A stretch of 64,000 nt of DNA from an uncultured Bradyrhizobium sp. (lineage in GTDB: Bacteria; Pseudomonadota; Alphaproteobacteria; Rhizobiales; Xanthobacteraceae): assembly GCA_964609175.1 (NCBI GenBank), contig CAZSRR010000027.1, positions 21,276 to 85,275 on the forward strand. Direction: 5' to 3'. Numbering within the stretch: the first letter of the stretch is position 1; each line of letters begins with the position of its first letter. Made by a program: the position numbers and the translations under genes. The notes below the pieces were generated by a model, which did no database searches, was not told the DNA's origin, and saw only the letters and a program-made list of their open reading frames with translations. Of this stretch, positions 5,286 through 29,975 are shown piece by piece.

Positions 5286-5302
5286 TGACCAATTTTTGGT
5301 CA
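5286..5302. promoter_or_regulatory. Palindrome TGACCAA-TTT-TTGGTCA, candidate IclR operator
   Basis: Perfect 7-bp arms in the AT-rich divergent intergenic region, abutting the iclR start. Confidence 0.45.
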
Positions 5303-6111
5303 TGGTAACCACCGTCGCTTCTTCCGGCAGCGTCAAGCCGTCCGAAGACCACGCCGACCCCTCCTTCGCGACCACACTGGCGCATGGGCTCGACGTGCTG
5401 GCGGCGTTCCGCAATCGCAGCGGCTCGCTGTCGAACGCCGACCTCGCGCTGCATACCGGCCTGTCGCGGCCGACGGTGTCGCGGCTGACCTACACGCTGG
5501 CGCAGCTCGGCTATCTCAAGCGCGATGCCAAAGGACGCTTCCAGCCTGGGCTCGGCATTCTCGCCGCCGCCTATCCCGTTCTGTCGGCACTGAAAGTGCG
5601 GCAACTGGCGCGGCCGCTGATGCGCGACTTCGCGGCCTACACCGGCGGCACGGTGTCGATCGCAATGCCGTTCGGGCTCGACTTCATCTATGTCGAAACG
5701 GTGCGCACCACCGATGCCGTGACGCATCTGCCCGATGTCGGCTTTGCCAGTTCGTTGGCACCGACCGCGGTCGGCCGCGCGCTGCTCTCGCTGTTCAACA
5801 AGGACGAACTCGACGCCTATGTGGCCGATGTGAAGGCCGAGCGCCCGGACGAAGCCGACTACGTGCAGGCGCGGACCCTGCCCGATGTCGAACTGTGCAA
5901 GCAGCGCGGCTTTGCGATTTCGCTCGGCGAGTGGCGCCGCGAGATTTTTGGCGTCGCCGCGCCGCTCTACCGCACCGCATCCGGCGATTGCCTTTCCGTC
6001 AATTGCGGCATCCCGTCGTTTCGCTTCAATGCCGAACAGATCGAGCGCGAATGCGGGCCGCGCATGCTGGGTCTGGCTCGCAGCATCCGTGCGCTGGTCG
6101 CCGGCGACTGA
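5302..6111 (+). CDS. IclR family transcriptional regulator
   Basis: TLAHGLDVL...TGLSRPTVSRLTYTLAQLGYL HTH; TAVGRALL; GEWRREIFGVAAP. ATG 5302 preferred over TTG 5296. Confidence 0.92.
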   Translation: MVTTVASSGSVKPSEDHADPSFATTLAHGLDVLAAFRNRSGSLSNADLALHTGLSRPTVSRLTYTLAQLGYLKRDAKGRFQPGLGILAAAYPVLSALKVRQLARPLMRDFAAYTGGTVSIAMPFGLDFIYVETVRTTDAVTHLPDVGFASSLAPTAVGRALLSLFNKDELDAYVADVKAERPDEADYVQARTLPDVELCKQRGFAISLGEWRREIFGVAAPLYRTASGDCLSVNCGIPSFRFNAEQIERECGPRMLGLARSIRALVAGD

Positions 6112-6175
6112 AATAGCCCCGACAGAGGGCAGAGGGCGCATCGCTCGACCGGTGCGCAGCACATGGGAGGGAAGA

Positions 6176-7150
6176 ATGAGCCGGATCAAATCCGCGCTGG
6201 GCGTCGCGTTGGGCGCCGCGATGCTGCTAGCCAATGCCGCGCAGGCGCAGAGCAACTACCCGAACCGTCCGATCCGCGTCATCGTGCCCTACCCGGCCGG
6301 CGGCATCGTCGACCTCGTCGCGCGCGCCGTCACCGAACAGGTCGGCCGCGACTGGAAACAAACCGTCGTCATCGAGGCAAGGCCGGGCGGCAACAGCAAC
6401 ATCGGCACAGCGGCGGTGGCGCGCAGCGAACCCGACGGCTACACGTGGCTGGTCACCGGCCCGGCGGCGCTCGTCAATCCCACGCTCTACAAGGACGCCG
6501 GCTGGGATGCGCTGAAGGATCTCAGATGCGTCGGGCTTGCGGTGTGGAACCAGAGTGTCGCGCTGGTGCATCCCTCGATGCCGGCCGGCAGCATCAAGGA
6601 ATTCGTCGAGATCGCGCGCAAGAAGCCGGGCGAGCTGAATTTCGGCAATCCCGGCACCGGCTCCTCGATCGACCTCAGCGCGCAAAAATTGTTTCAGGCC
6701 GCCGGCATCAAACTGACCAATGTCGGCTACAAAGGCCAGCCCCAGGCTCTGATCGACCTGATGACCAACCTGATGCATTTCGAGATCGTCTCACTCGAAC
6801 TGGCGCTGCCGCACATCAAGGCCGGCAGCCTCAAGCCGCTGGCCGTCATGACCGACAAGCGCGTCGCCGACCTGCCCGACGTGCCGACGATTGCCGAGGC
6901 CGGATTTCCGGAGGCCACCTATGTGCCCTGGTACGGCATCTACGTGCAGGCGGGAACGCCGGCCGCCATCGCCGAGAAAATCAACGAGGGCATCAGCAAG
7001 GCGCTGCAGAATCCGGACGTGCAGCGCCAGCTTGCGGTCGCCAATATTCCCGGCAAGCCGACGCCCCTCGCAGACCTCGCCGCGCTGATGAAGGCGGACC
7101 ACGAGAAGCTGACGAAGGTAATCGCGACGTCGGGGATGGCGCTGCAATGA
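6176..7150 (+). CDS. Tripartite tricarboxylate transporter substrate-binding protein (Bug/TctC family)
   Basis: YPNRPIRVIVPYPAGGIVD, EARPGGNSNIG, VGYKG, LPDVPTIAEAG; signal peptide; GGGAGG RBS before ATG 6176. Confidence 0.9.
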   Translation: MSRIKSALGVALGAAMLLANAAQAQSNYPNRPIRVIVPYPAGGIVDLVARAVTEQVGRDWKQTVVIEARPGGNSNIGTAAVARSEPDGYTWLVTGPAALVNPTLYKDAGWDALKDLRCVGLAVWNQSVALVHPSMPAGSIKEFVEIARKKPGELNFGNPGTGSSIDLSAQKLFQAAGIKLTNVGYKGQPQALIDLMTNLMHFEIVSLELALPHIKAGSLKPLAVMTDKRVADLPDVPTIAEAGFPEATYVPWYGIYVQAGTPAAIAEKINEGISKALQNPDVQRQLAVANIPGKPTPLADLAALMKADHEKLTKVIATSGMALQ

Positions 7151-7246: not shown

Positions 7247-8251
7247 TCATTTCTTCACTTTACTCGCATCCATCTTGATCGACGTATCCAGCATCCTGGT
7301 CGTGAAAGCCGTGTTGACGTCGAACGGCTTCTCCATGCCGAGATAGGTCTGCACCAGTTCGTAGTCCTTTTTCATGCGCTCGGCGTCGATCCAGCCCAGC
7401 GCCCTGGTGGTGGTGAATTCGTCGGTCATCAGAAACTTGATGCGCTCCCATTGCCGCTGCTGGTTTTCCCTGTCGAGCCCGGAGGCCTGGTCGAGCAGCG
7501 CCTTCAGGCAAGGTGCAACGTCGGCGACGCAGGCGGCATAGGCCTTCTGGCTGATCCTGACGAACTCCTCGACCAGCTTCGGGTTCTTCGCGAGATAGGC
7601 GCCGTTGACGATCAGCGAGTTGCCGTACGGGTTGAGCCCGATATCCTTCCAGTTGACATGGCCGAGCTCGGAACCGAACTCGATCACCTTGAGATCGTGT
7701 TCGTTATAAAAATCGCTGATGATGTCGACGGTGTGGGCCTTCAACGCCGCGATCTTGGCGGTTGGACCTACATTAACAAAACTTACGGCGTCGGGGGCGA
7801 TGCCGACGGCTTTGGCAAAGGCCGGCCACATCACCCGCGAAGCGTCGCCGGGCGGATTTCCGATCTTGTGATTTGGAAAATCCTTCGGCCCGTTCACGCC
7901 GTAGCTCTTCAGCCAGTAGAAGGTCTGGCCGGTATTGGCGTAGATGCTCATCAGCGCCACCGCATCGGCGCCCTTGCTCTTGGCGACGAGCATGGTTGCG
8001 AGATCGGCGATGCCGAACGGCGAGCCGCCGGAGCCGACCTTCAGCGCGGAGACGCCGGAGCCCTTGCCCACCTCGATCGTCAGGTCGATGCCGGCCTTCT
8101 CGTACCAGCCCTGCGCCTTGGCGTAGTAAAACGGTGAATGGTCCGCCGTCGGTGTCCAGTTGAGGACCAGGTTGACGGCCTCGGCCGCACTGCAGGACGC
8201 CGCCGGCAGAGCCAGTGCAACCGCTAGCCCAGCAATTCGCAACGACTTCAT
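7247..8251 (-). CDS. ABC substrate-binding protein, NMT1/THI5 family (paralogue 1)
   Basis: LNWTPTADHSPFYYAKAQGWY..AGIDL, GKGSG, YGNSLIVN; signal peptide; GAGGAGG RBS. Confidence 0.9.
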   Translation of the reverse strand: MKSLRIAGLAVALALPAASCSAAEAVNLVLNWTPTADHSPFYYAKAQGWYEKAGIDLTIEVGKGSGVSALKVGSGGSPFGIADLATMLVAKSKGADAVALMSIYANTGQTFYWLKSYGVNGPKDFPNHKIGNPPGDASRVMWPAFAKAVGIAPDAVSFVNVGPTAKIAALKAHTVDIISDFYNEHDLKVIEFGSELGHVNWKDIGLNPYGNSLIVNGAYLAKNPKLVEEFVRISQKAYAACVADVAPCLKALLDQASGLDRENQQRQWERIKFLMTDEFTTTRALGWIDAERMKKDYELVQTYLGMEKPFDVNTAFTTRMLDTSIKMDASKVKK

Positions 8252-8330: not shown

Positions 8331-8346
8331 TCAACTGTTCGGTTGG
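8331..8346. promoter_or_regulatory. Degenerate TetR operator candidate TCAACTGTTCGGTTGG
   Basis: 12/16 match to the core of the palindrome at 8994-9015; sits in the SBP/tetR divergent region. Confidence 0.5.
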
Positions 8347-8348
8347 AA

Positions 8349-8996
8349 ATGCCTAAAAAACGATCTGACGACAAAGCGCCACAGCGGCGCGACCCCGCCG
8401 CGACCCGCAAGAAGCTGCTGACGGCGGCGCGGCGTGAATTCGCCAGCAGCGGGCTTGCCGGCGCCCGGGTCGACGAGATCGCGGCGCGTGCGGGCGTCAA
8501 CAAGCAACTCGTCTATCATTATTTCGGCGACAAGGATGCGCTGTACCTCGCCGTTCTAGAATGGGTCTACGAGGAAATCCGCGCGCAGGAGCGCAAGCTC
8601 AACCTCGAGGGATTGCCGCCCGAGCAGGCGATCAGGAAGCTGATCGAGAGCTCTTTCGACCATCTCGCCGCGCATCCGGACTTCATCGTGCTGCTCAACG
8701 ATGAAAACCGTGGCGGCGCCCGCCATGTGCGCGGCTCCCGCAGGCTGCCGGCGATGCATTCCCCGCTGGTGAGCCTGGTTTCGACCATCCTCAAACAGGG
8801 GGTCAAGTCCGGCGTATTCCGCAAGGGCATCAACCCGGTCCATCTCTACATCTCGATTGCAGGTCTCAGCTATTTCTACTTTTCGAATACGCCGACCCTG
8901 TCGGCGATCTTCGGCAAGGACCTGTCGAGCCGGGCCGCCCGGCTGGCCCGCCGCCGGCACGTGGTCGACCTGGTGATGCATTCGCTGCGCCCATAA
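8349..8996 (+). CDS. TetR family regulator (RutR/NicS-like C-terminal domain)
   Basis: GARVDEIAARAGVNKQLVYHYFGDKDALY HTH; YISIAGLSYFYFSN..TLSAIFG. Confidence 0.92.
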   Translation: MPKKRSDDKAPQRRDPAATRKKLLTAARREFASSGLAGARVDEIAARAGVNKQLVYHYFGDKDALYLAVLEWVYEEIRAQERKLNLEGLPPEQAIRKLIESSFDHLAAHPDFIVLLNDENRGGARHVRGSRRLPAMHSPLVSLVSTILKQGVKSGVFRKGINPVHLYISIAGLSYFYFSNTPTLSAIFGKDLSSRAARLARRRHVVDLVMHSLRP

Positions 8997-9015
8997 TCAA
9001 CCGTATGGTTGATTA
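8994..9015. promoter_or_regulatory. Palindrome TAATCAACC-GTAT-GGTTGATTA, candidate TetR operator for the downstream operon
   Basis: Perfect 9-bp arms overlapping the tetR stop, 70 bp before the permease start. Confidence 0.65.
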
Positions 9016-9085
9016 GTCAGGAAGGCCGCGATAGATTGCGGTCACGCGTCCGGGAGACGGGCGCGCCGGCCTTTGGGAGCGCACG

Positions 9086-9856
9086 GTGTTCAGCGGCGAC
9101 GGCGGATCGGCACGGTCTTTCGCGATCATCCTGATCGTACATCTCGCCGTGATCGTGCTCTGGCAGGTGCTCGTCGACGCATTCCAGGTGCCGAAGTTCA
9201 TCCTGCCCTCGCCGCTTGCGACGATCAAGACGCTGGGCTCGCCGAGCTATGCCTGGCTCTCCAACCTCGCGGTGACCGCGGTCGAAATTCTCGGCGGGTT
9301 CTGCCTCGGCGCGCTGGTCGGCGTCACGCTGGCGGTGATCTTCACCTGGTCGCCGCTGGTCAGCCTGCTGCTGCTGCCGCTGTTCGTGACGTTGAACATG
9401 ATTCCCAAGGTCGCGCTCGGGCCGCTGTTCATCGTCTGGTTCTCCTACGGCATCCTGCCGAACATCCTGATCGCGTTCTCGATCTGTTTCTTCCCGATCC
9501 TGCTGACCACCGCCCGCGGACTGAGCGAGGTGGAGCCAGACCTGCTCGACCTCGTCAAATCGCTGCGCGGCTCGCGCTGGACGCTGTTCCGCAAGATCCA
9601 ACTGCCCGGCGCGCTGCCTTATGTATTTTCCGGCATGAAGGTCGGCGCGATCCTGGCGGTGGCCGGCGCCATCGTCGGCGAATTCATCGCCTCCGAGCGC
9701 GGGCTCGGCTACCTCATGATTCAGGTGCAGTCCTCGCTCGACACGCCGGCGATGGTGATGGCGGTGGTGCTCCTGACATTGCTGGGCGTGGCGCTGTACG
9801 GGCTCGTGCTCGGCCTCGAGCGGGTGTTCGTCGTTCGCGACATCCGGCTGCAATAA
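9086..9856 (+). CDS. ABC permease (SsuC/TauC/ThiX type)
   Basis: FILPSP, IPKVALGPL, FFPILLTTARGL, QLPGALPYVFSGMK, GEFIASERGLGYL; GTG start. Confidence 0.92.
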   Translation: MFSGDGGSARSFAIILIVHLAVIVLWQVLVDAFQVPKFILPSPLATIKTLGSPSYAWLSNLAVTAVEILGGFCLGALVGVTLAVIFTWSPLVSLLLLPLFVTLNMIPKVALGPLFIVWFSYGILPNILIAFSICFFPILLTTARGLSEVEPDLLDLVKSLRGSRWTLFRKIQLPGALPYVFSGMKVGAILAVAGAIVGEFIASERGLGYLMIQVQSSLDTPAMVMAVVLLTLLGVALYGLVLGLERVFVVRDIRLQ

Positions 9857-9871
9857 GAAGACAGGAAACCC

Positions 9872-10909
9872 ATGCTGCTGACGCGCGACACCCTGCCCCA
9901 GACGATTTCGGACATCGCAGCGCTCGACGAATTGCTGTGCCGGCCAAGCCAGGCGCTGATCGACGACCTGCGCAAGGTCGAGGGCGACATCATGATTCTG
10001 GGCGTCGCGGGCAAGATGGGGCCGACGCTGGCGGGCCTCGCCAAGGCCGCCGCGCCGGAGCGTCGCGTCGTCGGCGTCGCGCGTTTCTCCGATCCCGCCG
10101 TCGAGGACTGGCTGCAGGCGCGCGGCATCGAGACCATCCATTGCGACCTGCTCGACGAAGCGGCCATCAACGCGCTGCCAAAGGCACCGAACATCGTCTT
10201 CATGGCCGGGCGCAAGTTCGGCGCCGAGGGCGATTTGTCGCTGACCTGGGCGATGAACGCGCACGTCCCTGCCTTGGTCGCACAGGCCTTTGCGGCTTCG
10301 CGCATCGTCGCGTTCTCGACCGGCTGCGTCTATCCGTTCGTGCCGGTGGACGGCAAGGGCGCGCGCGAGGACATGGCGCCCAATCCGCCCGGCGAATACG
10401 CGCAATCCTGCGTCGGACGCGAGCGCATGTTCGAGTATTTCTCGAAAAAGCATTCCACGCCCGGGCGGCTGTTCCGGCTCAATTACGCCATCGACATGCG
10501 CTACGGCGTGCTGCACGACATCGCGAGCAGGGTGTTGCAGGGAGAACCGATCGACGTCAGCCTCGGCCATGTCAATTTCATCTGGCAGGGCGACGCCTCC
10601 GCGCAGGCGCTGCGCTGCCTGGCGCATTGCAACACGCCGACCTCGCCGATCAATGTCAGCGGCCATGAAATTCTCGCCGTGCGCGACCTCGCGGCAAAGT
10701 TCGGCCAGCGTTTTGGCCGCCCGCCGGTCATCATCGGCAAGGAAGAGCCGACGGCATGGCTGACCGATACCTCGCAGGCGGCAAAGCTGTTCGGCCTGCC
10801 GATCGTCGACACCGAGCAGCTGATCAGCTGGACGGCCGACTGGGTGTCGCGATCGATGCCGAACCTCGGCAAGCCCACCAAATACGAGGTGCGCGATGGC
10901 CGCTACTGA
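9872..10909 (+). CDS. NAD-dependent epimerase/dehydratase-like extended SDR with an atypical YxxxC motif
   Basis: LGVAGKMG Rossmann motif, MAGRKFG, FSTGCVY, GEYAQSCVGRE, RLNYA. Confidence 0.8.
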   Translation: MLLTRDTLPQTISDIAALDELLCRPSQALIDDLRKVEGDIMILGVAGKMGPTLAGLAKAAAPERRVVGVARFSDPAVEDWLQARGIETIHCDLLDEAAINALPKAPNIVFMAGRKFGAEGDLSLTWAMNAHVPALVAQAFAASRIVAFSTGCVYPFVPVDGKGAREDMAPNPPGEYAQSCVGRERMFEYFSKKHSTPGRLFRLNYAIDMRYGVLHDIASRVLQGEPIDVSLGHVNFIWQGDASAQALRCLAHCNTPTSPINVSGHEILAVRDLAAKFGQRFGRPPVIIGKEEPTAWLTDTSQAAKLFGLPIVDTEQLISWTADWVSRSMPNLGKPTKYEVRDGRY

Positions 10910-11720
10910 GCCGGTCGACATCGTCGAGCTCGACCCCGGCGACGCGCCGGCCGGCCTCGTCTTGTCCACCGAGGCGCGCTGGAACCAGAACGAAGCCGAC
11001 TGGAAGTTCTTCCTGAGCCGGGGCACCGTGTTCGGCGTCCGTGCCGGCGCCCGGCTGGTCGCAACGGCAGCGCTCTTGCCCTATTCGGCCGGCCAGGCCT
11101 GGATCAGCATGGTGCTGGTGACAGCCGACTTTCGCCGACGCGGCATCGCGACGCGGCTGGTTGATGCCTGCCTCGCCGCCGCAGCCGAACGCGGCCTCAC
11201 CACGTGGCTGGACGCGACCCCCGACGGTGCCACTGTCTACGGCCCGCTCGGCTTCGAGCCGACGCTGCAGTTGAGGCGGCTACGGCTGACGGCGCTGCAG
11301 GGCGCCGCGGCCGAGGATTCGCTCTCGAATGGCAGTCTGGACGTCCTCTCCGCACGCGACGCGCGCGCGACAGGTTTCGACCGCAGCCCGTTGCTTTCGG
11401 AATTTTCCGCGCGCCCGGGCTCGCGGATCGTATCCGAGGGCGAGGCCATCGCCCTCGTCCGCGATGGGCATACCGCGCGCCAGATCGGCCCGGTGCTGGC
11501 CGGCGACCCCGATCAGGCGCTCGCGCTGGTGAATGCCATCGTGTGCTCCGAGACCGGGCCCTGGCTGATCGACGCCGTCCATTCGCAGCAAGCATTTCTG
11601 GACGCCCTCGTCGCCTCGGGCTGGACCATCGAACGGCCGTTTCAGCGCATGCGCCTTGGCCCGCCAACCGCCGCGCCGGCGCAATTGCCGTTCGCCGTCG
11701 CCGGCCCGGAATTCGGATAG
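10896..11720 (+). CDS. GNAT N-acetyltransferase (two-domain, YitH-like)
   Basis: MVLVTADFRRRGIATRL acetyl-CoA motif A; LDATPDGATVYGPLGF; RQIGPV in the C-terminal domain. Confidence 0.85.
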   Translation: MAATEPVDIVELDPGDAPAGLVLSTEARWNQNEADWKFFLSRGTVFGVRAGARLVATAALLPYSAGQAWISMVLVTADFRRRGIATRLVDACLAAAAERGLTTWLDATPDGATVYGPLGFEPTLQLRRLRLTALQGAAAEDSLSNGSLDVLSARDARATGFDRSPLLSEFSARPGSRIVSEGEAIALVRDGHTARQIGPVLAGDPDQALALVNAIVCSETGPWLIDAVHSQQAFLDALVASGWTIERPFQRMRLGPPTAAPAQLPFAVAGPEFG

Positions 11721-11731
11721 GAAGCGCCACC

Positions 11732-12787
11732 ATGCACCACAGCGACATCAAGGCCGACATTCGCCAGCTGATCGCCGACGGCACGGTACTCCCCGCGCAC
11801 CCGCTGGCGCTCGATGCCGACCGCAAGCTCGATGCCAGGCATCAGCGGGCGCTGACGCGCTATTACCTCGATGCCGGCGCCGGCGGGCTTGCGGTGGGCG
11901 TCCACACTACGCAGTTTGCGATCCGCGACGTCGGGCTGTACCGCCCCGTGCTGGAACTCGCGGCGGAGACCGCAACTGCCTGGACCAAGCGACCGGTCGC
12001 GATGGTCGCGGGGCTCGCCGGCCCGACCGCGCAGGCCATCGCGGAAGCGCAGACGGCGCGCGGCATCGGTTACCACGCCGGCCTGCTCAGCCTTGCCGCG
12101 ATGAAGTCGGCGTCCGAGGACGAGATCATCGCGCATTGTGAAGCGGTGACGCGCGAGATCCCGCTGGTCGGCTTCTATCTGCAGCCGGCGGTCGGCGGCG
12201 TGATCCTCAGCACCGACTTCTGGCGGCGCTTCGCCTCGATCGACAATGTCATCGCGATCAAGATCGCGCCGTTCAACCGCTACCGGACGCTCGACGTGCT
12301 GCGCGGCGTGGCGGCGGCGGGCGCACTCGACCGCGTCGCGCTCTACACCGGCAATGACGACCACATCCTGCTCGACCTGATGCTGCCGTTCGACCTCCGC
12401 GACAAGGGCGTCACGACGCGCGCCTACTTCAAGGGCGGCCTCCTTGGCCACTGGTCGGTATGGACCGCCAGCGCAATCAGGCAGTTCGAGATGTGCAAGG
12501 CCGCGCGCGGCAAGGACACCCTGCCCGCCGACCTGCTGGCGCTCGATGCCCGCGTCACCGACTGCAACAGCGCCTTCTTCGACGTCGCCAACAATTTTCA
12601 TGGCTGCATCGCCGGCTGTCATGAAGTCCTGCGCCGGCAGGGCTTGATGCAGGGGCTGTGGTGCCTCGATCCCGCCGAAGGGCTGAGCCCCGGGCAAATG
12701 CAGCAAATCGACCGCGTCTGCCGCGAGCACGCCGATCTGTCAGACGACGCCTTCGTCAAGGACAATCTGCAGAAATGGCTGGCATGA
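11732..12787 (+). CDS. Dihydrodipicolinate synthase-family (class I aldolase fold) protein of unknown specificity
   Basis: GLAVGVHTTQF (GxxGE-equivalent loop), GFYLQPAVGG, VIAIKIAP Schiff-base Lys, LYTGNDD. Start MHHSD at 11732. Confidence 0.8.
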   Translation: MHHSDIKADIRQLIADGTVLPAHPLALDADRKLDARHQRALTRYYLDAGAGGLAVGVHTTQFAIRDVGLYRPVLELAAETATAWTKRPVAMVAGLAGPTAQAIAEAQTARGIGYHAGLLSLAAMKSASEDEIIAHCEAVTREIPLVGFYLQPAVGGVILSTDFWRRFASIDNVIAIKIAPFNRYRTLDVLRGVAAAGALDRVALYTGNDDHILLDLMLPFDLRDKGVTTRAYFKGGLLGHWSVWTASAIRQFEMCKAARGKDTLPADLLALDARVTDCNSAFFDVANNFHGCIAGCHEVLRRQGLMQGLWCLDPAEGLSPGQMQQIDRVCREHADLSDDAFVKDNLQKWLA

Positions 12788-13563
12788 GCGCCGTCGAGCC
12801 CTTCATCCGCCTGCAGAACGTCCGCAAGGTCTACCGCTCCAAGTGCGTGGAGTTTCTCGCCGTGTCCGACGTCACCATGGACGTCAACGAGGGCGAGCTG
12901 GTTTCGCTGGTCGGCCCCTCCGGCTGCGGCAAGACCACGGTGCTGAAGATTCTGGCCGGGCTGCACGATGCGGATGGCGGCACCATCAGGATCGGCAACG
13001 CCAAGACGCCGTTCGACCCGGCCCGCGACGTCGGCATGGTGTTCCAGCAGGCGCTGCTGCTGAAATGGCGGACCATTCTGGATAACGTATTGCTGCCGGC
13101 CGAGATCGTCGGCCTGCCGATGAAGGCGGCGCGCAGCCGCGCCCGCGACCTGCTCAATCTTGTCGGCCTCGCCGGCTACGAGGACAAATATCCGCAGCAA
13201 CTGTCCGGCGGCATGCAGCAGCGCACGGCCATCGCCCGCGCCTTCATCCACGATCCAAAGCTGATCCTGATGGACGAACCATTCGGCGCGCTCGACGCGC
13301 TGACCCGCGAACAGATGAACCTCGAAATGCTCAGGATCTGGCGCGAGAGCGGCAAGACCATCCTGTTCGTGACCCACTCGATCCAGGAAGCGGTGTTCCT
13401 CGCGTCGCATTGCGCGGTGCTCACCGCCGGCCCGGCGCGCATGGCGGAGTATTTTCCGATCGAACTGCCGTTCCCACGGACGCTGCCGATCAAGACAACG
13501 GACGCGTTCGGCGCCTATGCGCGGCGGATCTATGCGCGACTCGGGCTGAGCCCGAGTACATAG
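12784..13563 (+). CDS. ABC ATP-binding protein (SsuB/TauB type)
   Basis: GPSGCGKT, LSGGMQQR, LMDEPFGALD, FVTH; ATGA overlap with the DHDPS-like gene. Confidence 0.93.
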   Translation: MSAVEPFIRLQNVRKVYRSKCVEFLAVSDVTMDVNEGELVSLVGPSGCGKTTVLKILAGLHDADGGTIRIGNAKTPFDPARDVGMVFQQALLLKWRTILDNVLLPAEIVGLPMKAARSRARDLLNLVGLAGYEDKYPQQLSGGMQQRTAIARAFIHDPKLILMDEPFGALDALTREQMNLEMLRIWRESGKTILFVTHSIQEAVFLASHCAVLTAGPARMAEYFPIELPFPRTLPIKTTDAFGAYARRIYARLGLSPST

Positions 13564-13610
13564 CCGCGGACGTCATTGCTGCAGATGGGTCAGGCCCATG
13601 AGCTCTCCCC

Positions 13611-13724
13611 GTCATTGCGAGCGCAGCGAAGCAATCCATCTATCCGCCCGGAGATAGATGGATTGCTTCGTCGCTTCAGCGCAAAATTGCTTCGCAGTTT
13701 TGTCGCAGAACTCCTCGCGATGAC
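13611..13724. repeat. REP/BIME-like element (GTCATTGCGAG...GAAGCAATCCA...TGGATTGCTTC...CTCGCGATGAC)
   Basis: Nested inverted repeats between convergent genes. Confidence 0.8.
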
Positions 13725-13736
13725 GGGCGGAGAAAC

Positions 13737-14747
13737 CTATTTCGGGACCTTGCTGGCGTCCATCTTCACGGATGGATCGAGCAGCTTGCTGGTGAATGCG
13801 CTTTCGATCGCGAACGGCTTTTCGATGCCGAAATAGGTCTGGACCAGTTCGTAATCCTTGCGCATGCGGCCTTCGTCGATCCAGCCCAGCGCCTTGCTGG
13901 TGGTGAACTCATCGGCCATCAGGTATTTGATGCGGCCCCACTGCATCAGCTGTTCCTCGCGGTCGAGACCGGTGACCTGGTCGAGCAGCGCCTTCAGGCA
14001 GGGTTCGAAGTCCGCGACGCAGGCGGCATAGGCCTTTTGCGTGATACGGACGAAATCCTCGGCGAGCTTGGGATTCTTCTCGAAGAACGCGCCGTTGACG
14101 ATCAGCGAATTGCCGTAAGGATTGAGACCGATTTCCTTCCAGTTCAGCGAGCCGAGATCGCCGCCGAACTCCTTCAGCTTGATGTCGTGCGAATTGTAGA
14201 AGTCGCTGATGATTTCGACCGTCTTGCTCTTCAGCGCCGCCGATTTGGCCGTCGGGCCGACATTGACGAAGGTGACGGAGTCGGGCGCGAGGCCCGTCGC
14301 CTTGGCAAAGGCCGGCCACATCACGCGCGAGGCGTCACCCGGCGGATTGCCGATCTTGCGGCCGGCAAAATCCTTCGGTCCACCGACGCCCGAACTCTTC
14401 AGCCAGTAGAAGGTCTGGCCGGTATTGGCATAGATGCTCATCAGCGCCACCGCATCGGCGCCCTTGCTGCGGGCGACCAGCATGGTCGCGAGGTCTGAAA
14501 TGCCAAACGGCGCGCCGCCCGAACCGACTTTGAGCGACGACACGCCCGACCCCTTGCCGACCTCGATGCTGAGATCGATCCCGGCCTTTTCGTACCAGCC
14601 CTGCGACTTTGCGTAATAAATCGGCGAGTGATCGGCCGCCGGGGTCCAGTTAAGGATCAGGCTCACGCTTTGACCGGCCACGGCCGGCGCAACGGGCGCC
14701 GACAGCGCGAGCAAAAGTCCGGCAATCTTGAACGTTTTCAACGCCAT
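13737..14747 (-). CDS. ABC substrate-binding protein, NMT1/THI5 family (paralogue 2)
   Basis: Colinear with 7247-8251 throughout; start at ATG 14747 after AAAAGGAG. Confidence 0.9.
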   Translation of the reverse strand: MALKTFKIAGLLLALSAPVAPAVAGQSVSLILNWTPAADHSPIYYAKSQGWYEKAGIDLSIEVGKGSGVSSLKVGSGGAPFGISDLATMLVARSKGADAVALMSIYANTGQTFYWLKSSGVGGPKDFAGRKIGNPPGDASRVMWPAFAKATGLAPDSVTFVNVGPTAKSAALKSKTVEIISDFYNSHDIKLKEFGGDLGSLNWKEIGLNPYGNSLIVNGAFFEKNPKLAEDFVRITQKAYAACVADFEPCLKALLDQVTGLDREEQLMQWGRIKYLMADEFTTSKALGWIDEGRMRKDYELVQTYFGIEKPFAIESAFTSKLLDPSVKMDASKVPK

Positions 14748-14784
14748 CTCCTTTTCGCGAACAGGTTGAAGGATTCCGTCGGCG

Positions 14785-15888
14785 CTATTCATACGCCATG
14801 GGACCGGTATCGCGATAGGCCCAGCAACTCTCCTTGGGCAGCGAAACCTGGGTCACGACGCCCACCTGGTGCCGGGCGGCGGTGCCGAGTTCGACCACTT
14901 CCAGCCGCCTGCCGAACAGCTCGATGCCGTAAGCCGTCTGCGTGCCCTGATAGCGGCGATCGAGCACCCGGGCCGGAAAGATGTTGTCGCCGTTGTGCGG
15001 GCCGATGCTGATGTTTTCCGGCCGCAGCGCGACGCGCACCTTTTCATCCGGCCCGAGCGAATGCAGCAATGCCACCTCGCCGCGCCGTCCCTCGCCGAAA
15101 TCGACGGTGCCGAACTTGCCGTTGCGCGCCACCAGCGTGCCGGCGAGTTCGTTGGTGGCGCCGGTGAAGTTGGCGACGAACAGATCCGCCGGCCGGTTGT
15201 AGATCGCGTCGGGCGTATCCATCTGCAAGAGATTGCCGTCGCGCATCACGCCGATGCGGTCGCCGAGCACCACCGCTTCGGCCTGATCATGGGTGACGTA
15301 GAGCGCGGTCATCCCGGTCTGCTTGAGGATGACACGGAGATCGTCGCGCAGCCTTAAGCGCAGCTTGGCATCGAGGTTCGACAGCGGCTCATCGAGCAGC
15401 AGCAATTGCGGCCGGTAGACGATGCTGCGCGCCAGCGCCACGCGCTGCATCTGACCGCCCGACAACGCGACCACCGGCCGTTCGGCATATTCCGACAGGC
15501 CGACCAATTCGAGCGCTTCGTCGACCTTGTTGCGGGCGTCGCCGCGCGACAGTTTTCGATGCTTGAGCGGATAGACCACGTTCTGCCGCACCGTCATGTG
15601 CGGCCACACCGCATAGGACTGGAACACCATGCCGAGGTCGCGCAGACGCGGCGGGACCAGGATGCCGCGTCCGGGCGACGACACCACCCGGCCCGCAATG
15701 CTGATTTCGCCCGAGGTCGGATGCTCCAGCCCCGCGACGCAGCGCAGTGTCGTGGTCTTGCCGCAGCCGGAGGGGCCGAGCAGGACCACGATCTCGCCGG
15801 CCGGGATGTTGAAGCTGACGCCGTCGATCGCCGGCCGGCCGATCGCAAACTGCTTGCGCAGGTCGGTGACTTCGAGGGTTGCCGTCAT
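14785..15888 (-). CDS. ABC ATP-binding protein (FbpC/PotA type, with TOBE domain)
   Basis: GPSGCGKT, FQSYAVWPHMTV, LSGGQMQR, LDEPLSNLDAKLR. Confidence 0.93.
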   Translation of the reverse strand: MTATLEVTDLRKQFAIGRPAIDGVSFNIPAGEIVVLLGPSGCGKTTTLRCVAGLEHPTSGEISIAGRVVSSPGRGILVPPRLRDLGMVFQSYAVWPHMTVRQNVVYPLKHRKLSRGDARNKVDEALELVGLSEYAERPVVALSGGQMQRVALARSIVYRPQLLLLDEPLSNLDAKLRLRLRDDLRVILKQTGMTALYVTHDQAEAVVLGDRIGVMRDGNLLQMDTPDAIYNRPADLFVANFTGATNELAGTLVARNGKFGTVDFGEGRRGEVALLHSLGPDEKVRVALRPENISIGPHNGDNIFPARVLDRRYQGTQTAYGIELFGRRLEVVELGTAARHQVGVVTQVSLPKESCWAYRDTGPMAYE

Positions 15889-15916
15889 CGGTTCGACCGT
15901 GTTCCTGGTCCGGCGA

Positions 15917-16942
15917 TCACTGTGCGTAACCGTAGGTCTTGTTCCAGTCCGAGATCCAGGCCGCCTGGAGCTTTTCGTATTCGTCGAACTTGGGAAACCA
16001 GACCTTGACGACCTTGGGATCGAAACCTTCCGGATAGGCCGGCGGCACTTTCAGCGATGTGAGGTTGCCGAGTTCCTTGATCATGAAAGTCTGCCCCTCC
16101 TTCGAGAGGCACCAGTTCAGAAACAGCTTTGCCGCGTTCGGGTGCGCGGCGGTCTTCGGAATGCCGCTGGCATAGGGATTGACCGGCGCGCCTTCCGGCG
16201 GAAAGAAGATCTGGATCGGGGCGCCGTCCTTTTGCTTGGGATAAATCGCGTTATAGAGCAGCGGCCCCATGGCGATTTCGCCGCGCACCATCGAGTCCGA
16301 CATCGGCGCGCCCGACGGATAAAGCACCGGGCGGGTCGCTGCCTGCTTGGCCCAATAATCCTCGCCGAGCACCTGGCGTTCGAACATCACCCGCGTCCAG
16401 GTGGTGCCGCCCGACGGCGCGATCACCTGCCCCGTCAGCTTGTTGTATTCCGGCTTGGTGAGGTCCATCCAGTTCTTGGGCGGGTTCTTGACCAGTTCGG
16501 TGTTGTAGGCGATCGACCAGACCAGCGTGGCGCGCGGCCAGAGCTGCGGAGCGACCTGCGAGTCCGGGTTGTAGTCGGCCGCGTTCGGCGGCGCGTAATC
16601 CTGGAACATGTCCGCCATCGGCTTCATCAGCGCGCGGTCGGAGTGGTCGATCACGTCGGCGATCAGCTTGCCGGCGGCGGCCTCGGTCTTCACGCGGGTG
16701 ATCAACTGACCGCCCGGCGCGCGCACCATCTCGACCTTGATTTCGGGGAAGCGCTTGTTGAAGGCCTTGATGACCTGCTGCTCCACTTCGGCGAAGTTCG
16801 CGGTGTAGTACACCAGCTTGCCCTCGGCCTTGGCCGCGGCAATCAATTCGGGCGAGCCGAACTCCTGCGCCGTCGCGGCCCCCGTCAGCGCGAGGCCGGC
16901 GACGCCGGCAATCGCGGCAAGTTTGAAGATCCTTCCACGCAT
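15917..16942 (-). CDS. ABC extracellular solute-binding protein (FbpA/AfuA-like)
   Basis: LIAAAKAEGKLVYYT, AAHPNAAKLFLNWCLSKEGQ; signal peptide; GGAGGA RBS before ATG 16942. Confidence 0.85.
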   Translation of the reverse strand: MRGRIFKLAAIAGVAGLALTGAATAQEFGSPELIAAAKAEGKLVYYTANFAEVEQQVIKAFNKRFPEIKVEMVRAPGGQLITRVKTEAAAGKLIADVIDHSDRALMKPMADMFQDYAPPNAADYNPDSQVAPQLWPRATLVWSIAYNTELVKNPPKNWMDLTKPEYNKLTGQVIAPSGGTTWTRVMFERQVLGEDYWAKQAATRPVLYPSGAPMSDSMVRGEIAMGPLLYNAIYPKQKDGAPIQIFFPPEGAPVNPYASGIPKTAAHPNAAKLFLNWCLSKEGQTFMIKELGNLTSLKVPPAYPEGFDPKVVKVWFPKFDEYEKLQAAWISDWNKTYGYAQ

Positions 16943-16960
16943 AGCCAATCCTCCGTTTGA

Positions 16961-18691
16961 TTATCCGGTTCGGGCGACACTGCCCTGCGCCGCACCGCGC
17001 GACAGCCAATTGGCGCCGCCGATGAGAACGCCGAGCAGAACGGTTTGAACGAGGCTGAAGGCGGCGGTCTTGCCGAGATTGCCGCCTTCGTAATAGTCGA
17101 GCAGCAGCACCGACATCACCATGGTGTTGCTGGTGTAGAGGAACAGCGACGAGCCGAGTTCGCGGATCGCCAGCACGAACAGCAGCGTCATCGAAGCCAC
17201 CACGCCCGGCCGCGCCAGCGGCAGCACGATTGTCCGGATCGTGCCGAGCATGCCCCTGCCGCAGACCCAGGCGGCCTCTTCAAGCTCGCGATGAATCTGC
17301 ATGAACGAAGTCGACAGCGATTTCACCGTGTCCGGGATGAAGCGCGCGATGAAGGCCAGCGCCAGGATCCAGATCGTGCCGTAGAGGCCGGCCGGAATGC
17401 CGATCCACGCCCAGAGATAGGCGACGCCGACCACGAGGCCTGGGATCGCAACCGGCAGCGTCGAAATCACGTCGATCCAGCGCCGGCCCGTAACCTGGGT
17501 GCGGTGGATGGTGTAGCCGATCGCAAACGCCAGCGCGCCGCCGACCACGGCGGTGATCAGCCCGACCTCGACCGCGTTGTAGATCGAGCGCAGCGTCAGC
17601 GGATTGTCAAAGATGCTGTAGAAATGCATCAGCGAATATTGCCTGGCATCGAACAGGCTGGAGACGTCGCGGATGAACATGAATTTCCGAAACGCCGCGA
17701 CGATCAGCGCCAGCGACGGCAGCACGACGACGACCAGCAGATAGACAATGCCGAGGCCGAAGGTGAACCAGCGCCAGCGCCCGAGGTCGAGGCTGCGCGG
17801 ACGGAACGCCTTGCCCGCGACGGTAGTGTAGCTGCGGCCGCTCAAGACCTTGTTCTGCAGGAACACCAGCGCGCCGGTGACCAGCATCAGGATGATCGCA
17901 ACCGCGGCGGCCGTATTATAAAGTGGCGGCGACCAGTTGGTGAGCTTGAAGATGTAGGTGGTCAGCACCGCAAGGTTGGTCGGCGCGCCCAGCACCGCCG
18001 GAATGCCGTAGATGCCCAGCATGACGATGAACGAGAGCAGCATGCCCGAGACGATCGCGGGCATGATCAGCGGGAACGTCACCGTGAACAGCGTCGCGAA
18101 CGCGCTGGCGCCGGAAATCTCGGCCGCCTCTTCCAGGCTCGGGTCCATGTTGCGCAGCGCGGATGCCGTGAACATGTAGACGTAGGGCGCGTAGTAGATT
18201 CCGAATACGAACACCAGGCCCCACATCGAATAGAAATCGACGCGCCAGTCGAGCCCCACCCATTTGAACATGGTGTTGATCAGGCCTGTCTTCGGCGAAC
18301 CCAGAATGGCCCAGGCCACGCCAGCGACCAACGGCGGCGCAAACAGCGGCAGGATGCTCGCTGCCGCGATAAAACCCTTGAACGGCGTGTTGGTGCGGAC
18401 GACGATCCAGGAGAACAGCAAGCCGATGGCGACCGCGATCAGCGTGCCGCCGCCGCAGGCTATCAGCGTATTCGCCAGCGCCTCGCCGACATTCGGGTTC
18501 GCCAGCACGGTGAGGAAATTGGCGATCGAAAGACGGCTGAGCGAGATGCCCTCGACCACCGGATTGGTGTCGGTGAGCGCGCCGAGCAGCAGCATCAGGA
18601 TCGGGTAGATGACGAGAAAGCCGAGGACAACCAGCAGGAACGTGACCCACACGCCGCCCCACGCGCGCTGCCCCTCCCTGGCGCTACGCAT
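16961..18691 (-). CDS. Fused ABC permease (FbpB/AfuB type, two EAA loops)
   Basis: MDPSLEEAAEISGAS and IHRELEEAAWVCG; about 12 TM segments. Confidence 0.9.
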   Translation of the reverse strand: MRSAREGQRAWGGVWVTFLLVVLGFLVIYPILMLLLGALTDTNPVVEGISLSRLSIANFLTVLANPNVGEALANTLIACGGGTLIAVAIGLLFSWIVVRTNTPFKGFIAAASILPLFAPPLVAGVAWAILGSPKTGLINTMFKWVGLDWRVDFYSMWGLVFVFGIYYAPYVYMFTASALRNMDPSLEEAAEISGASAFATLFTVTFPLIMPAIVSGMLLSFIVMLGIYGIPAVLGAPTNLAVLTTYIFKLTNWSPPLYNTAAAVAIILMLVTGALVFLQNKVLSGRSYTTVAGKAFRPRSLDLGRWRWFTFGLGIVYLLVVVVLPSLALIVAAFRKFMFIRDVSSLFDARQYSLMHFYSIFDNPLTLRSIYNAVEVGLITAVVGGALAFAIGYTIHRTQVTGRRWIDVISTLPVAIPGLVVGVAYLWAWIGIPAGLYGTIWILALAFIARFIPDTVKSLSTSFMQIHRELEEAAWVCGRGMLGTIRTIVLPLARPGVVASMTLLFVLAIRELGSSLFLYTSNTMVMSVLLLDYYEGGNLGKTAAFSLVQTVLLGVLIGGANWLSRGAAQGSVARTG

Positions 18692-18975
18692 GACTTCGCT
18701 GCGCCGGCTCGTCTGTCCGTTCAACGCGCTTCCCCTCCCGTGACCGTCTTTTTATGGAATTGCGGTCGCGATGCGCGCCAAGCCTAGTCGATTGCGCGGC
18801 GAACGGGAAGCTATCCGAACGTCGGCGCGCGAATATGGCGCACGGCGTGTTTTTCTGGAGCCGCGCCATTCGTTCGCATACGCATCATGCAGCGATGTCT
18901 CTGTGGCTTGTAGCGGGTTCGTAGTACACGCCGCGGTGGGCGCAACGTCCCCTTTTGCGCAGCGAGCCCGACCAG

Positions 18976-20364
18976 ATGCCTCCAGAGCCGACTGCACAGC
19001 CATCGACCCCGGCGCCGATCGATGGCCTGCCCCCCGAACGCCGGCGCTGGGCGGTCGCGGCGATCTTCACCGCGCTGGCGATGGCTTCGCTGGATACGGC
19101 GATCGCCAACATTGCATTGCCCGCGATCGCCACCGACCTGAAGGTCAGCCCGGCCGACGCGGTCTGGGTCGTCAACATCTACCAGATCGCCCTGGTCGCG
19201 ACGCTGCTGCCGCTCGGCGCGCTCGGCGATATCGTCGGCCATCAGCGCATCTACTTCGGAGGGCTGCTGATCTTCACGCTGGCCTCGCTCGGCTGCGCGC
19301 TGGCGTGGTCGCTGCCCAGTCTGACGGCGGCCCGTGCGCTGCAGGGCCTCGGCGCCAGCGGCCTGATGAGCGTGAACGCGGCGCTGGTACGCTACGTCTA
19401 CCCGACCCACATGCTGGGCCGCGGTTTCGGTCACAACGCGCTGGTGGTCGGCACCGCCTTCACCTTCGGACCGACGATCGCGTCCGCGATCCTCGCATTC
19501 GGACCCTGGCCGTGGCTGTTCGCGGTCAATATCCCGTTCGGCATCATCGCGCTCTGGATCGGGGTGAAGACCCTGCCGAATACGCCGCGCGCCAAGCATG
19601 CGTTCGATTTCACCAGCGCGGCGCTGACCACGAGCTGCCTCGGGCTCTTCATCGTCGGCATCGGCGGGGCGGCGCACCAGGTCTCGCCTGCGCTGGTCGG
19701 CCTGATGCTGGCCGCCGCCTTGCTGCTCGGCTGGATCATGACACGCAGAGATGCGGAGCATCCCGCGCCGATGCTGCCGATCGATCTGTTCCGGCGGCCG
19801 ATGTTCGCGCTGTCGGCGGCGACCTCGGTCTGTTCGTTCGTGGTACAGGGTCTGGCCTTCGTCTCGCTGCCGTTCTACTTCGTGGACGTGCTGCACCGCT
19901 CGCAGGTGGAAACCGGCGTCTTGATGACGCCATGGCCGCTGGTGGTGGCGATCATGGCGCCGATCGGCGGGCGGCTGTCCGACCGCTATCCGGTCGGCAT
20001 CCTTGGCGGCCTCGGCCTGGTGCTGCTCGGCATCGGCATGGCGTTGCTGGCGATGCTGCCGGCCGATCCCGCCACCGCCGACATCGTCTGGCGCATGGTG
20101 GTTTGCGGGATCGGTTTCGGCTTCTTCCAGACGCCGAATTTGCGGGCGCTGATGGCAAGCGCGCCGCCGCACCGCAGTGGCAGCGCCAGCGGCATCGTCG
20201 CGACCGCCCGCCTGACCGGGCAAACGCTCGGCGCAGCACTGGCAGCGCTGTGCTTCGCCCTCGGCGGCCATGATGGCGCGACCGCGGCGCTGATGCTCGG
20301 GGCGGGGTTTGCAGCAATCGGAAGCCTGATGAGCTTCCTGCGCCTTGCCGTAGGTTCCACATGA
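18976..20364 (+). CDS. MFS transporter, DHA2 (EmrB/QacA-like, 14 TM)
   Basis: LDTAIANIALP, GALGDIVG, ARALQGLGA, GPTIASAIL, WLFAVNIPFG, GGRLSDRY. Confidence 0.9.
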   Translation: MPPEPTAQPSTPAPIDGLPPERRRWAVAAIFTALAMASLDTAIANIALPAIATDLKVSPADAVWVVNIYQIALVATLLPLGALGDIVGHQRIYFGGLLIFTLASLGCALAWSLPSLTAARALQGLGASGLMSVNAALVRYVYPTHMLGRGFGHNALVVGTAFTFGPTIASAILAFGPWPWLFAVNIPFGIIALWIGVKTLPNTPRAKHAFDFTSAALTTSCLGLFIVGIGGAAHQVSPALVGLMLAAALLLGWIMTRRDAEHPAPMLPIDLFRRPMFALSAATSVCSFVVQGLAFVSLPFYFVDVLHRSQVETGVLMTPWPLVVAIMAPIGGRLSDRYPVGILGGLGLVLLGIGMALLAMLPADPATADIVWRMVVCGIGFGFFQTPNLRALMASAPPHRSGSASGIVATARLTGQTLGAALAALCFALGGHDGATAALMLGAGFAAIGSLMSFLRLAVGST

Positions 20365-20386
20365 CAGCCATGCGAACGCATGCATC

Positions 20387-21871: not shown

Positions 21872-21898
21872 CGCACCGTTCCCTGACCTGCGAGCCGA

Positions 21899-21941
21899 TT
21901 GACCGGCCGCATCATTGGTATACGATCATTCGTGTACAAAT
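21899..21941. promoter_or_regulatory. Divergent fpr/enamidase promoter with tandem operator-like sites ATTGGTATACGATC (21914-21927) and ATTCGTGTACAAAT (21928-21941)
   Basis: TTGACC-N16-TACGAT on the + strand; each site is an 11/14 match to one of the palindromes at 32375 and 32526. Confidence 0.6.
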
Positions 21942-22015
21942 GAATAATCCGGCTTGATCCGATCGTCAAGCCGGGCACAATGTCCGGCGAAGGCATTGAG
22001 GCAAAAGGAAAAACC

Positions 22016-23215: not shown

Positions 23216-23351
23216 CAGCGGCACGGTTCACGAATGCGTGCAACGGGGCGTGAAAGTCACGCCTGACCTCGAAAGCGGTGAACAAATCCGCGGCCTTCGC
23301 GACCAATGCGAGCAGGCTTGATGGACACCTGCGCTCACCACCGAGGCAGAG

Positions 23352-24032: not shown

Positions 24033-24084
24033 CGCCCGGCGAGCGGGCTCCCGGTTTCTGCTCCGCTTGGGGTTGTTGTCGGAG

Positions 24085-24540: not shown

Positions 24541-24562
24541 CTTTCGTCCCCTCCCCTGCCGC

Positions 24563-27938: not shown

Positions 27939-27960
27939 GGGCGGTCCGGGTTACGTGGTC

Positions 27961-28130: not shown

Positions 28131-28141
28131 GGAGCAAGAAC

Positions 28142-29347: not shown

Positions 29348-29371
29348 CCCTGCCTCCAATGTACCTGTGAA

Positions 29372-29956: not shown

Positions 29957-29975
29957 CTGTCAGCCTCGCTCCCGA

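Follow-up and report, generated by a model that had tools for sequence, protein, structure and literature searches.

A putative substrate-inducible operon in an uncultured Bradyrhizobium joins an NMT1-type ABC importer to an atypical SDR, a GNAT and a DHDPS/NAL-family enzyme

The window considered here is a stretch of 64,000 nucleotides from an uncultured Bradyrhizobium sp., and between its positions 7247 and 14792 lies a module in which genes for an importer of the ATP-binding cassette (ABC) class are interleaved with genes for three enzymes: an extended short-chain dehydrogenase/reductase (SDR), a two-domain GNAT acyltransferase, and a member of the dihydrodipicolinate synthase/N-acetylneuraminate lyase (DHDPS/NAL) family, referred to below as the aldolase-like protein (Table 1). 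The genes for a TetR-family regulator, the permease, the three enzymes and the ATPase all lie on one strand (8349-13563), whereas the gene for the NMT1-type substrate-binding protein (SBP) SBP1 is divergent. The GC content is 62-70%. The genes from permease to ATPase are tightly coupled, as the original prediction had described, with gaps of 11-15 nt and overlaps of 4-14 nt: 15 nt separate the permease and SDR genes, the SDR and GNAT genes overlap by 14 nt (ATGGCCGCTACTGA), 11 nt separate the GNAT gene from that of the aldolase-like protein, and the latter overlaps the ATPase gene by an ATGA, or by 13 nt should translation of the ATPase begin at the upstream ATG, 12775. The closest NCBIfam models of the permease are SaoP, SsuC and NtrB, none of which reaches its cut-off, and the closest model of the ATPase is TauB-like (215 bits vs a cut-off of 357). 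As a repressor-controlled importer with catabolic enzymes, the module is of a familiar kind and not a categorically new system.

Table 1. Genes and predicted operators of the module and the adjoining SBP2 gene, in window coordinates.
Feature	Position	Strand	Remarks
SBP1, NMT1/THI5-type periplasmic binding protein	7247-8251	-	Signal peptide; PF09084, E = 1.3e-37; divergent from tetR
Predicted operator O1, TCAACTGTTCGGTTG	8331-8345		Divergent promoter region between sbp1 and tetR; ends 3 nt ahead of the tetR ATG
TetR-family repressor	8349-8996	+	TetR_N (E = 4e-15) and TetR_C_29; RutR-like, not RutR
Predicted operator O2, AATCAACCGTATGGTTGATT	8995-9014		Perfect 8-4-8 palindrome, from the tetR stop towards the permease start
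ABC permease, NitT/TauT type	9086-9856	+	BPD_transp_1, PF00528, E = 4e-27
Extended SDR, TerB-like	9872-10909	+	PF01370, 34.4 bits vs cut-off 20.9
Two-domain GNAT acyltransferase	10896-11720	+	Acetyltransf_1 and Acetyltransf_18
DHDPS/NAL-family (aldolase-like) protein, 351 aa	11732-12787	+	PF00701, 32.6 bits vs cut-off 22.1; AIKIAPF with K177
ABC ATPase	12784 (alternative ATG 12775)-13563	+	PF00005, E = 1e-32
SBP2, NMT1-type binding protein	13737-14792	-	76%-identical paralogue of SBP1

The nearest homologues of the aldolase-like protein are found in Bradyrhizobium, at 85-95% identity, and the 25 loci termed closest in what follows (L001-L025) are mostly from that genus. The gene order is kept in 24 of these 25 and is rearranged in distant taxa. 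An SBP1-type gene adjoins the module in every one of the closest loci, and such a binding protein is present in 30 of 55 distant ones.

The aldolase-like protein is predicted by AlphaFold to form a TIM barrel (predicted local distance difference test score, pLDDT, 94), and both its score, which lies above the gathering threshold, and its fold place it in the PF00701 superfamily. Foldseek matched it with a probability of 1.00 to structures of DHDPS, NAL, HOGA, KdgD and MosA, at query-normalised template modelling (TM) scores of 0.67-0.75 and identities of 14-22%; judged from the model, it appears to be roughly equidistant from all of these, with no characterised branch closest. The Schiff-base lysine that had been pointed out in IKIAP is retained: in comparisons with 3pud and 1xky, K177 (AIKIAPF) falls on the GIKD lysine and Y149 (FYLQP) on the tyrosine of LYNVP. 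The T59/T60 pair aligns with the threonines of the DHDPS motif GTTGE, and K177, Y149 and T60 are invariant in an alignment of 60 sequences. The features shared with the DHDPS/NAL superfamily are the TIM barrel, an (I/V)xIK motif that holds the Schiff-base Lys, the YxxP Tyr and the TT pair. On the other hand, the protein carries about 60 extra residues, has HTTQF instead of GTTGE, is at most 22% identical to any member of solved structure and has no equivalent of DapA Tyr107 or Arg138, the two positions aligning with 'AAM' and Val. It belongs to none of the familiar equivalog families, on whose models it scores 18-23 bits against cut-offs of 206-382: 17.8 vs 206 bits for DapA (TIGR00674), 20 vs 382 for NanA (TIGR00683) and 23 vs 374 for KdgD (TIGR03249). 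Its best NCBIfam match, to 5-dehydro-4-deoxyglucarate dehydratase, is very weak at 26 bits.

The AlphaFold model of the SDR (pLDDT 94) has its best Foldseek match in TerB (6nd7; TM-score 0.76, 23% identity), followed by GalE- and RmlB-type structures. Its Rossmann motif is intact, with G44, G47 and G50 (GxxGxxG) invariant, and its family score is above the cut-off. The catalytic triad is incomplete: S149 and Y176 are invariant, but the position of the Lys is taken by an equally invariant cysteine, Cys180 (YAxSC), where TerB has YPVGK. This cysteine is kept in the 44 proteobacterial-type sequences aligned and also in homologues from Bacillota, Actinomycetota and Vulcanimicrobiota, and such an invariant Lys-to-Cys swap in an SDR triad is of mechanistic interest of its own. 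The protein shares the extended-SDR fold, the GxxGxxG motif and the Ser and Tyr residues with GalE-type SDRs and with TerB, an NADP-dependent oxidoreductase of terfestatin biosynthesis (6d2v, 6nd7). It differs from TerB, apart from the low identity and the cysteine, in an N-terminal extension of about 35 residues and in its catabolic context, TerB belonging to a natural-product cluster.

Both domains of the GNAT score well above their cut-offs (PF00583, 43.2 vs 20.7 bits; Acetyltransf_18, 41.3 vs 22.7 bits). The acyl-CoA motif (RRRGIA, of the form RxxGxA) is present, with G83 invariant among 37 sequences and R80 and A85 in at least 90% of them, and Tyr115 is invariant as well. For all three enzymes the NCBIfam equivalog scores are far under the cut-offs and the best solved relatives reach 26-45 bits, which agrees with the earlier statement that no characterised route could be matched. 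Neither a curated family model, nor a solved structure, nor an open-access paper was found that assigns a function to these enzyme subfamilies, which are thus uncharacterised, as are the Tyr-x3-Cys SDR and the pathway; nor did the literature searched yield anything relevant on DUF993, a family that accompanies them in many genomes (see below).

The original prediction had given the module a TetR and an operator of its own. The module does appear to be self-regulated, with two sites flanking tetR in place of the single operator. The second of these, O2, begins inside the tetR stop codon. Within the 64-kb window the pattern TCAAC-N6-GTTG occurs only at O1 and O2, compared with 0.36 matches expected; three matches are listed for the two sites because O2, as a perfect palindrome, matches on both strands. 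A site at the O1 position, with at most one mismatch in the arms, is present in 25 of 29 loci with the sbp(-)/tetR(+) layout, and its arms are kept while the spacer varies. O2 keeps its place in 19 of the 25 closest loci, as well as in L027, L042 and L068, again with conserved arms and a variable 4-nt spacer; the distant taxa that have it there include Ferrovibrio, Maritimibacter and Eoetvoesiella. In L036, from a metagenome-assembled genome (MAG) of the Rhizobiaceae, and in L050, the O2 motif lies between tetR and the SDR gene. A related palindrome, GTAACC-N4-GGTTAC, occupies equivalent places in the more distant clusters L032, L061 and L073. In L073, an alphaproteobacterial MAG, it occurs at 5757-5772 and at 16513-16528 (the second site with a mismatch in one arm), in one case upstream of a Gfo-DUF993-isomerase-aldolase-ABC operon and in the other in the divergent region between SDR-GNAT and MetE-like genes, and since the same palindrome serves both, they would form one putative TetR regulon. 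The two predicted TetR operators of the window are thus well supported by comparative genomics, which alone defines the TCAAC-N6-GTTG operator. The TetR itself falls short of RutR membership (67.7 bits vs a cut-off of 368 for TIGR03613; 55 vs 230 for NF011584). A genome-wide operator search gave other matches, among them C37:25326 and C18:72899 on two further contigs of the same genome, C37 and C18. The first of these was inspected closely; it falls within coding sequence, in an ABC permease motif, and so is no operator. A further site looked at near it is C37:22333.

The distribution of the aldolase-like protein was followed in a scan of one genome per species, in which at least 594 records encode a relative. 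The best 80, examined for taxonomy, belong to Bradyrhizobium, other Alphaproteobacteria, Betaproteobacteria (Ramlibacter, Variovorax, Eoetvoesiella and others), Actinomycetes, Thermoleophilia and Vulcanimicrobiota, and a search of plasmids added Streptomyces, Rhodococcus, Paenibacillus, Mesobacillus and the planctomycete Aquisphaera. The contigs of more distant family members are mostly short, and their gene context is uninformative. The SDR and the aldolase-like enzyme occur together in at least six phyla; the pair recurs in Betaproteobacteria and, outside Proteobacteria, in Actinomycetota, Bacillota, Planctomycetota, Thermoleophilia and Vulcanimicrobiota. In Bradyrhizobium its occurrence is uneven: about 14 of 25 genomes have the module, one of them as a pseudogene. 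The carriers in this genus include strains of B. diazoefficiens (L024).

Co-inheritance was assessed with the Fisher test across 151 genera of Alphaproteobacteria, chosen so that essentially each family has one. Thirteen of them carry the aldolase-like gene, and the SDR gene is found in these 13 and in no others (p = 5e-19); GNAT accompanies them in 12 of the 13 (p = 9e-16), and DUF993 (PF06187) is found in 10 of the 13 against 7 of the 138 others (p = 4e-9). In two aldolase-positive genomes the SDR and GNAT genes form a locus apart from the aldolase-like gene, which is accompanied by DUF993, and all of them are retained. Physical linkage to the aldolase-like gene was counted in the 35 distant loci with at least 4 kb on both sides; the SDR gene is on the same retrieved locus in 33 and the GNAT gene in 25. 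Because they are both co-inherited and co-located, the three enzymes form a functional unit, the core of which is the SDR-aldolase pair. The position of the enzyme genes between those of the permease and the ATPase is an unusual layout, and it could be taken to mean that they are unrelated passengers in an ABC operon, or that the module is biosynthetic or serves salvage. This we regard as highly improbable: the co-occurrence data exclude chance juxtaposition, co-occurrence being perfect across the phylogeny and adjacency frequent across phyla, and an SBP-dependent importer together with a TetR repressor is the classical layout of a catabolic operon.

The module is part of a larger, widely distributed gene set, which the original prediction had missed; the SDR-aldolase pair recurs across phyla with partners of both carbohydrate and amine type, and the transporters paired with it vary among NMT1-ABC, tripartite tricarboxylate (TTT) and CUT1-ABC systems. 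In loci of a first type (type I) the core is joined by a Gfo/Idh/MocA protein, DUF993 and a TIM barrel of the xylose-isomerase-like kind. The genes for these additions come after that of the ATPase in L032 and L061, where no gap exceeds 400 nt, and ahead of the aldolase-like gene in L073. A short MetE-like protein, in many cases beside the SDR, and a flavin adenine dinucleotide (FAD) enzyme of the CrtI/amine-oxidase-like kind are also often present in type I loci. Loci of a second type (type II) add one or two xylose-isomerase-like proteins, an enolase-superfamily enzyme of the MLE subgroup, a second and very divergent enolase-like protein, and an amidase, and often have a TTT transporter replacing the NMT1-type ABC importer. 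The MLE-subgroup enzyme, whose gene adjoins that of the aldolase-like protein, has its best solved match in 2p88, which we take to be the Bacillus cereus N-succinyl-Arg/Lys racemase, followed by L-Ala-D/L-Glu epimerase, N-acylamino acid racemases and the NCBIfam family DgcA. FAD oxidases of the DAO/amine-oxidase type and the amidase recur among the partners. The Gram-positive versions of the pair belong to ABC operons of the carbohydrate type (CUT1), where its partners are a ROK or AraC regulator, Gfo/Idh/MocA proteins and a sugar-phosphate isomerase or 2-hydroxyacid dehydrogenase, and where no GNAT is present; in Streptomyces, ROK and CUT1 genes accompany the pair. Locus L072 has genes for a member of the MttB superfamily (trimethylamine-methyltransferase-like) and for a PfkB protein resembling 2-keto-3-deoxygluconate (KDG) kinase, at 10093-11472 (-) and 6023-7084. 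The MttB-like gene of this locus and the short MetE-like genes of many type I loci hint at a methyl-transfer step in some lineages.

The genome to which the window belongs has its own copy of the type I partners, in which a gene for a paralogous TetR (TetR2, 51% identity) is followed by genes for Gfo/Idh/MocA, DUF993 and the isomerase. This cluster is seen twice, at about 89.8-95.0 kb of contig C18 and at about 3.2-8.4 kb of contig C37, with identical scores and in opposite orientation; sites 17-22 kb away from the two copies are also mirrored, which suggests a large duplication or a redundant assembly. An open reading frame (ORF) of 337 codons between TetR2 and Gfo on C37 was considered as a gene and rejected as non-coding, its translation being arginine-rich, of low complexity and devoid of any Pfam match. 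DUF993 was also considered as a relative of the aldolase-like family and rejected, with an hhalign profile-profile probability of 0.4%; its phmmer matches to DHDPS, at E values of about 0.3, are not significant.

With these contexts at hand, the nature of the imported compound can be approached. The original prediction had emphasised a pyrimidine/purine-like N-heterocycle, a preference for which the family names NMT1 and RutR-like are the sole basis. In such a scheme a heterocycle of the pyrimidine, purine or pyridine type would be imported and degraded, the SDR carrying out redox chemistry on the ring, the GNAT trapping a ring-opened amine and the DHDPS-like enzyme performing a ring or retro-aldol reaction. 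The trio resembles the first steps of the diaminopimelate pathway, in which a DHDPS (DapA), an NAD(P) Rossmann enzyme (DapB) and an N-acyltransferase (DapD) act, and the logic of DapA, DapB and DapD would run in reverse. The best solved relatives of SBP1 are 4nmy, the formylaminopyrimidine (FAMP)-binding ThiY (3ix1, 55 bits) and THI5, the nearest named regulator of the TetR is RutR, and a nicotinate-degradation island (21098-37985) begins about 8 kb downstream. The module indeed has in common with ThiXYZ-type NMT1 importers the type of its SBP and a NitT/TauT-type permease and ATPase, and with RutR a similar ligand domain in the TetR. These similarities are all weak, however (50-61 bits for the SBP; 68 bits against a cut-off of 368 for RutR), and neither thiamine genes nor pyrimidine-utilisation genes are found in the module neighbourhood. 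In other phyla, moreover, the pair is associated with CUT1 ABC or TTT transporters, with ROK and AraC regulators and with enzymes of sugar type. Among the loci compared, the module has no recurrent monooxygenase, amidohydrolase or ring-hydroxylating enzyme of the sort typical of heterocycle catabolism, and the nicotinate island does not stand beside it in other genomes that carry it. An N-heterocycle is thus an unlikely substrate.

The carbohydrate-type partners, namely Gfo/Idh/MocA, the xylose-isomerase-like TIM barrel, the KDG-kinase-like protein and the 2-hydroxyacid dehydrogenase, bring to mind an amine-free route for a sugar acid, uronate or cyclitol, in which the GNAT would be a dispensable accessory. 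The model for such a route is the oxidative uronate pathway of Agrobacterium tumefaciens, where Udh is an extended SDR, Gci an enolase-superfamily enzyme and KdgD a DHDPS-family enzyme, and where carboxylates are imported as substrates; the same three superfamilies meet in the module where it is extended. KdgD (4ur7) is among the fold matches of the aldolase-like protein, whose best NCBIfam match is the very weak one given above, TTT transporters usually carry carboxylates, and the GNAT is absent from TTT-type and Gram-positive loci. Against this, the GNAT is co-inherited in all but one of the 13 alphaproteobacterial genera and its gene is translationally coupled between those of the SDR and the aldolase-like protein. 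The module has no close sequence relationship to Udh-Gci-KdgD, a Udh of the A. tumefaciens type is not among the top 50 fold matches of the SDR, and the Bradyrhizobium operon is without an enolase-superfamily gene. Where an enolase-superfamily partner does occur, it is of the MLE/N-acyl-amino-acid-racemase subgroup and not of the acid-sugar dehydratase subgroups, and GNAT genes, amidase genes and amine-oxidase-like FAD enzymes recur. An amine-free route is therefore conceivable but, in our judgement, rather improbable.

The amine-handling partners, that is the GNAT, the N-acyl-amino-acid-racemase-like enzyme, the amidase and the amine-oxidase-like FAD enzyme, invite a different comparison. In the N-acyl-amino-acid racemase routes for D-amino acids, as represented by the B. 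cereus 2p88 operon and by DgcN/DgcA, a GNAT-type acyltransferase, an MLE-type racemase and a deacylase act together, and in L028, L036 and L060 a GNAT, an MLE-subgroup enzyme and an amidase join the SDR-aldolase pair. The module differs from these routes in that the window has neither the racemase nor the amidase, the GNAT carries Acetyltransf_18 as an additional domain, and the NCBIfam scores are below the equivalog cut-offs. Another proposal is the catabolism of a cyclic imino acid of the hydroxyproline, hydroxypipecolate or betaine type, in which the SDR would reduce an imine or ketone and the DHDPS-like enzyme would work in the manner of pyrroline-4-hydroxy-2-carboxylate deaminase. In hydroxyproline-betaine catabolism, deaminases of the DHDPS family cooperate with epimerases of the MLE type; 2pmq and 4h2h, presumably MLE-type epimerases (HpbD), are among the structural matches of the MLE-subgroup partner, the cis-3-hydroxy-L-proline dehydratase model is among the matches of the enolase partner, far below its cut-off, and MttB-like and MetE-like methyl-transfer proteins are present in some loci. 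Such a scheme is very doubtful, given that neither a proline-racemase-like or D-hydroxyproline-dehydrogenase set nor an aldehyde dehydrogenase recurs with the module, and that the sugar-type partners and the CUT1/ROK contexts would be left unexplained.

Because the transporters vary and the partners mix carbohydrate-type with amine-handling enzymes, the best fit is a carboxylated amino-polyol. We therefore lean, with modest confidence, towards a substrate-inducible operon for the uptake and catabolism of such a compound, either an amino-sugar acid or a hydroxy-amino acid, and regard it as one version of a widespread pathway; any single named compound deserves much less confidence than this general reading. 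The amino-sugar-like option, which the original prediction had offered beside the heterocycle, is accordingly the one favoured (with a hydroxy-amino acid as its alternative) by the Gfo/Idh/MocA, DUF993 and xylose-isomerase-like partners or by the MLE racemase and amidase, and its general logic of uptake, redox change, N-acylation and Schiff-base chemistry on C-C or C-O bonds is reasonable.

The chemistry that we infer for the carboxylated amino-polyol would run as follows. The TetR would bind O1 and O2 on either side of its own gene and so control both the divergent sbp1 gene and the permease-SDR-GNAT-aldolase-ATPase operon. The NMT1-type binding protein would deliver a small, carboxylated, amine-bearing polyol, with an amino-sugar acid or hydroxy-amino acid as the likeliest class, and the GNAT may N-acylate its amino group. 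The SDR would use NAD(P) to oxidise, reduce or epimerise the compound at a hydroxyl or carbonyl group. Lys177 of the aldolase-like enzyme could then form a Schiff base with the resulting 2-oxo acid, followed by cleavage or dehydration, for example to pyruvate and an aldehyde. Further steps would be encoded elsewhere, and the candidate in this genome is the TetR2-Gfo/Idh/MocA-DUF993-isomerase cluster.

Several observations weigh against this proposal. The substrate is assigned from gene context, and every compound named is a putative one. The Bradyrhizobium operon is without a deaminase, aminotransferase, racemase or amidase, and since the accessory genes differ by lineage, the compounds that enter the shared core may differ with them. 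The loss of the catalytic Lys, as read from the alignment, leaves the redox competence of the SDR uncertain. GNAT is absent from about a third of the distant loci and from the Gram-positive versions, so N-acylation is not universal. DUF993 is found in 21 of 25 Bradyrhizobium genomes, this one included, and is too common there for its association to be informative within the genus, and no copy of the operator was found at the TetR2-Gfo-DUF993 cluster of this genome. Lastly, the nearest solved relatives of SBP1 bind pyrimidine precursors and the nearest named relative of the TetR is the uracil sensor RutR, although both similarities are weak.

A more far-reaching claim can be put forward only tentatively: that the Tyr-x3-Cys SDR, the GNAT and the HTTQF-type enzyme, together with Gfo/Idh/MocA, DUF993 and the xylose-isomerase-like protein, constitute an undescribed pathway, spread over at least six phyla, for an amino-sugar acid or hydroxy-amino acid that is abundant in the environment, with a new SDR catalytic arrangement and a first function for DUF993. 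The identity of the substrate would give names to several generically annotated families, probably including the first function for DUF993, and would reveal a nutrient contested by soil, rhizosphere and aquatic bacteria. The module is unusually tractable: it offers binding proteins of its own, clear catalytic residues to mutate, and a repressor that, with its two defined operators, could serve for ligand fishing or as a biosensor.

Some neighbouring features complete the picture. Of the two NMT1 binding proteins, SBP1 goes with the module; SBP2 sits in a neighbouring operon. Its gene is the last of a minus-strand Fe3+/PotD-type ABC operon (18724-13737), where it overlaps the ATPase gene of that operon by 8 nt. 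The operon (13737-18724) encodes a two-domain permease, an SBP_bac_1 binding protein, a TOBE-domain ATPase and then SBP2, translationally coupled, so that an orphan binding protein of the NMT1 class is housed in an operon of another ABC class. SBP2 has this operon-end position only in L001, L017 and L019, and a copy is also found behind the ATPase gene in the truncated locus L016; because the arrangement is confined to close relatives, SBP2 is a lineage-specific addition. Upstream of SBP1 in close relatives lie IclR and Bug/TctC genes (5296-7150), which were considered as parts of the module and rejected: with the TctC proteins found beside the module in other loci, the Bug protein shares 26-30% identity, less than its paralogues in the same genome do, and for this reason it is unrelated to the module.

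The spacer between the ATPase and SBP2 genes (13575-13730) holds a long imperfect inverted repeat, CCCGTCATTGCGAGCGCAGCGAAGCAATCCATC ... GATGGATTGCTTCGTCGC, which resembles a palindromic element of the repetitive extragenic palindromic (REP) type, and a fragment similar to it by eye is seen on contig C37, where 1.1 kb of non-coding DNA separate TetR2 from Gfo. Beyond the Fe3+/PotD-type operon, the region 18771-20385 contains long ORFs; those in two frames and on both strands are without a Pfam match, and a third frame runs over 18955-20364.

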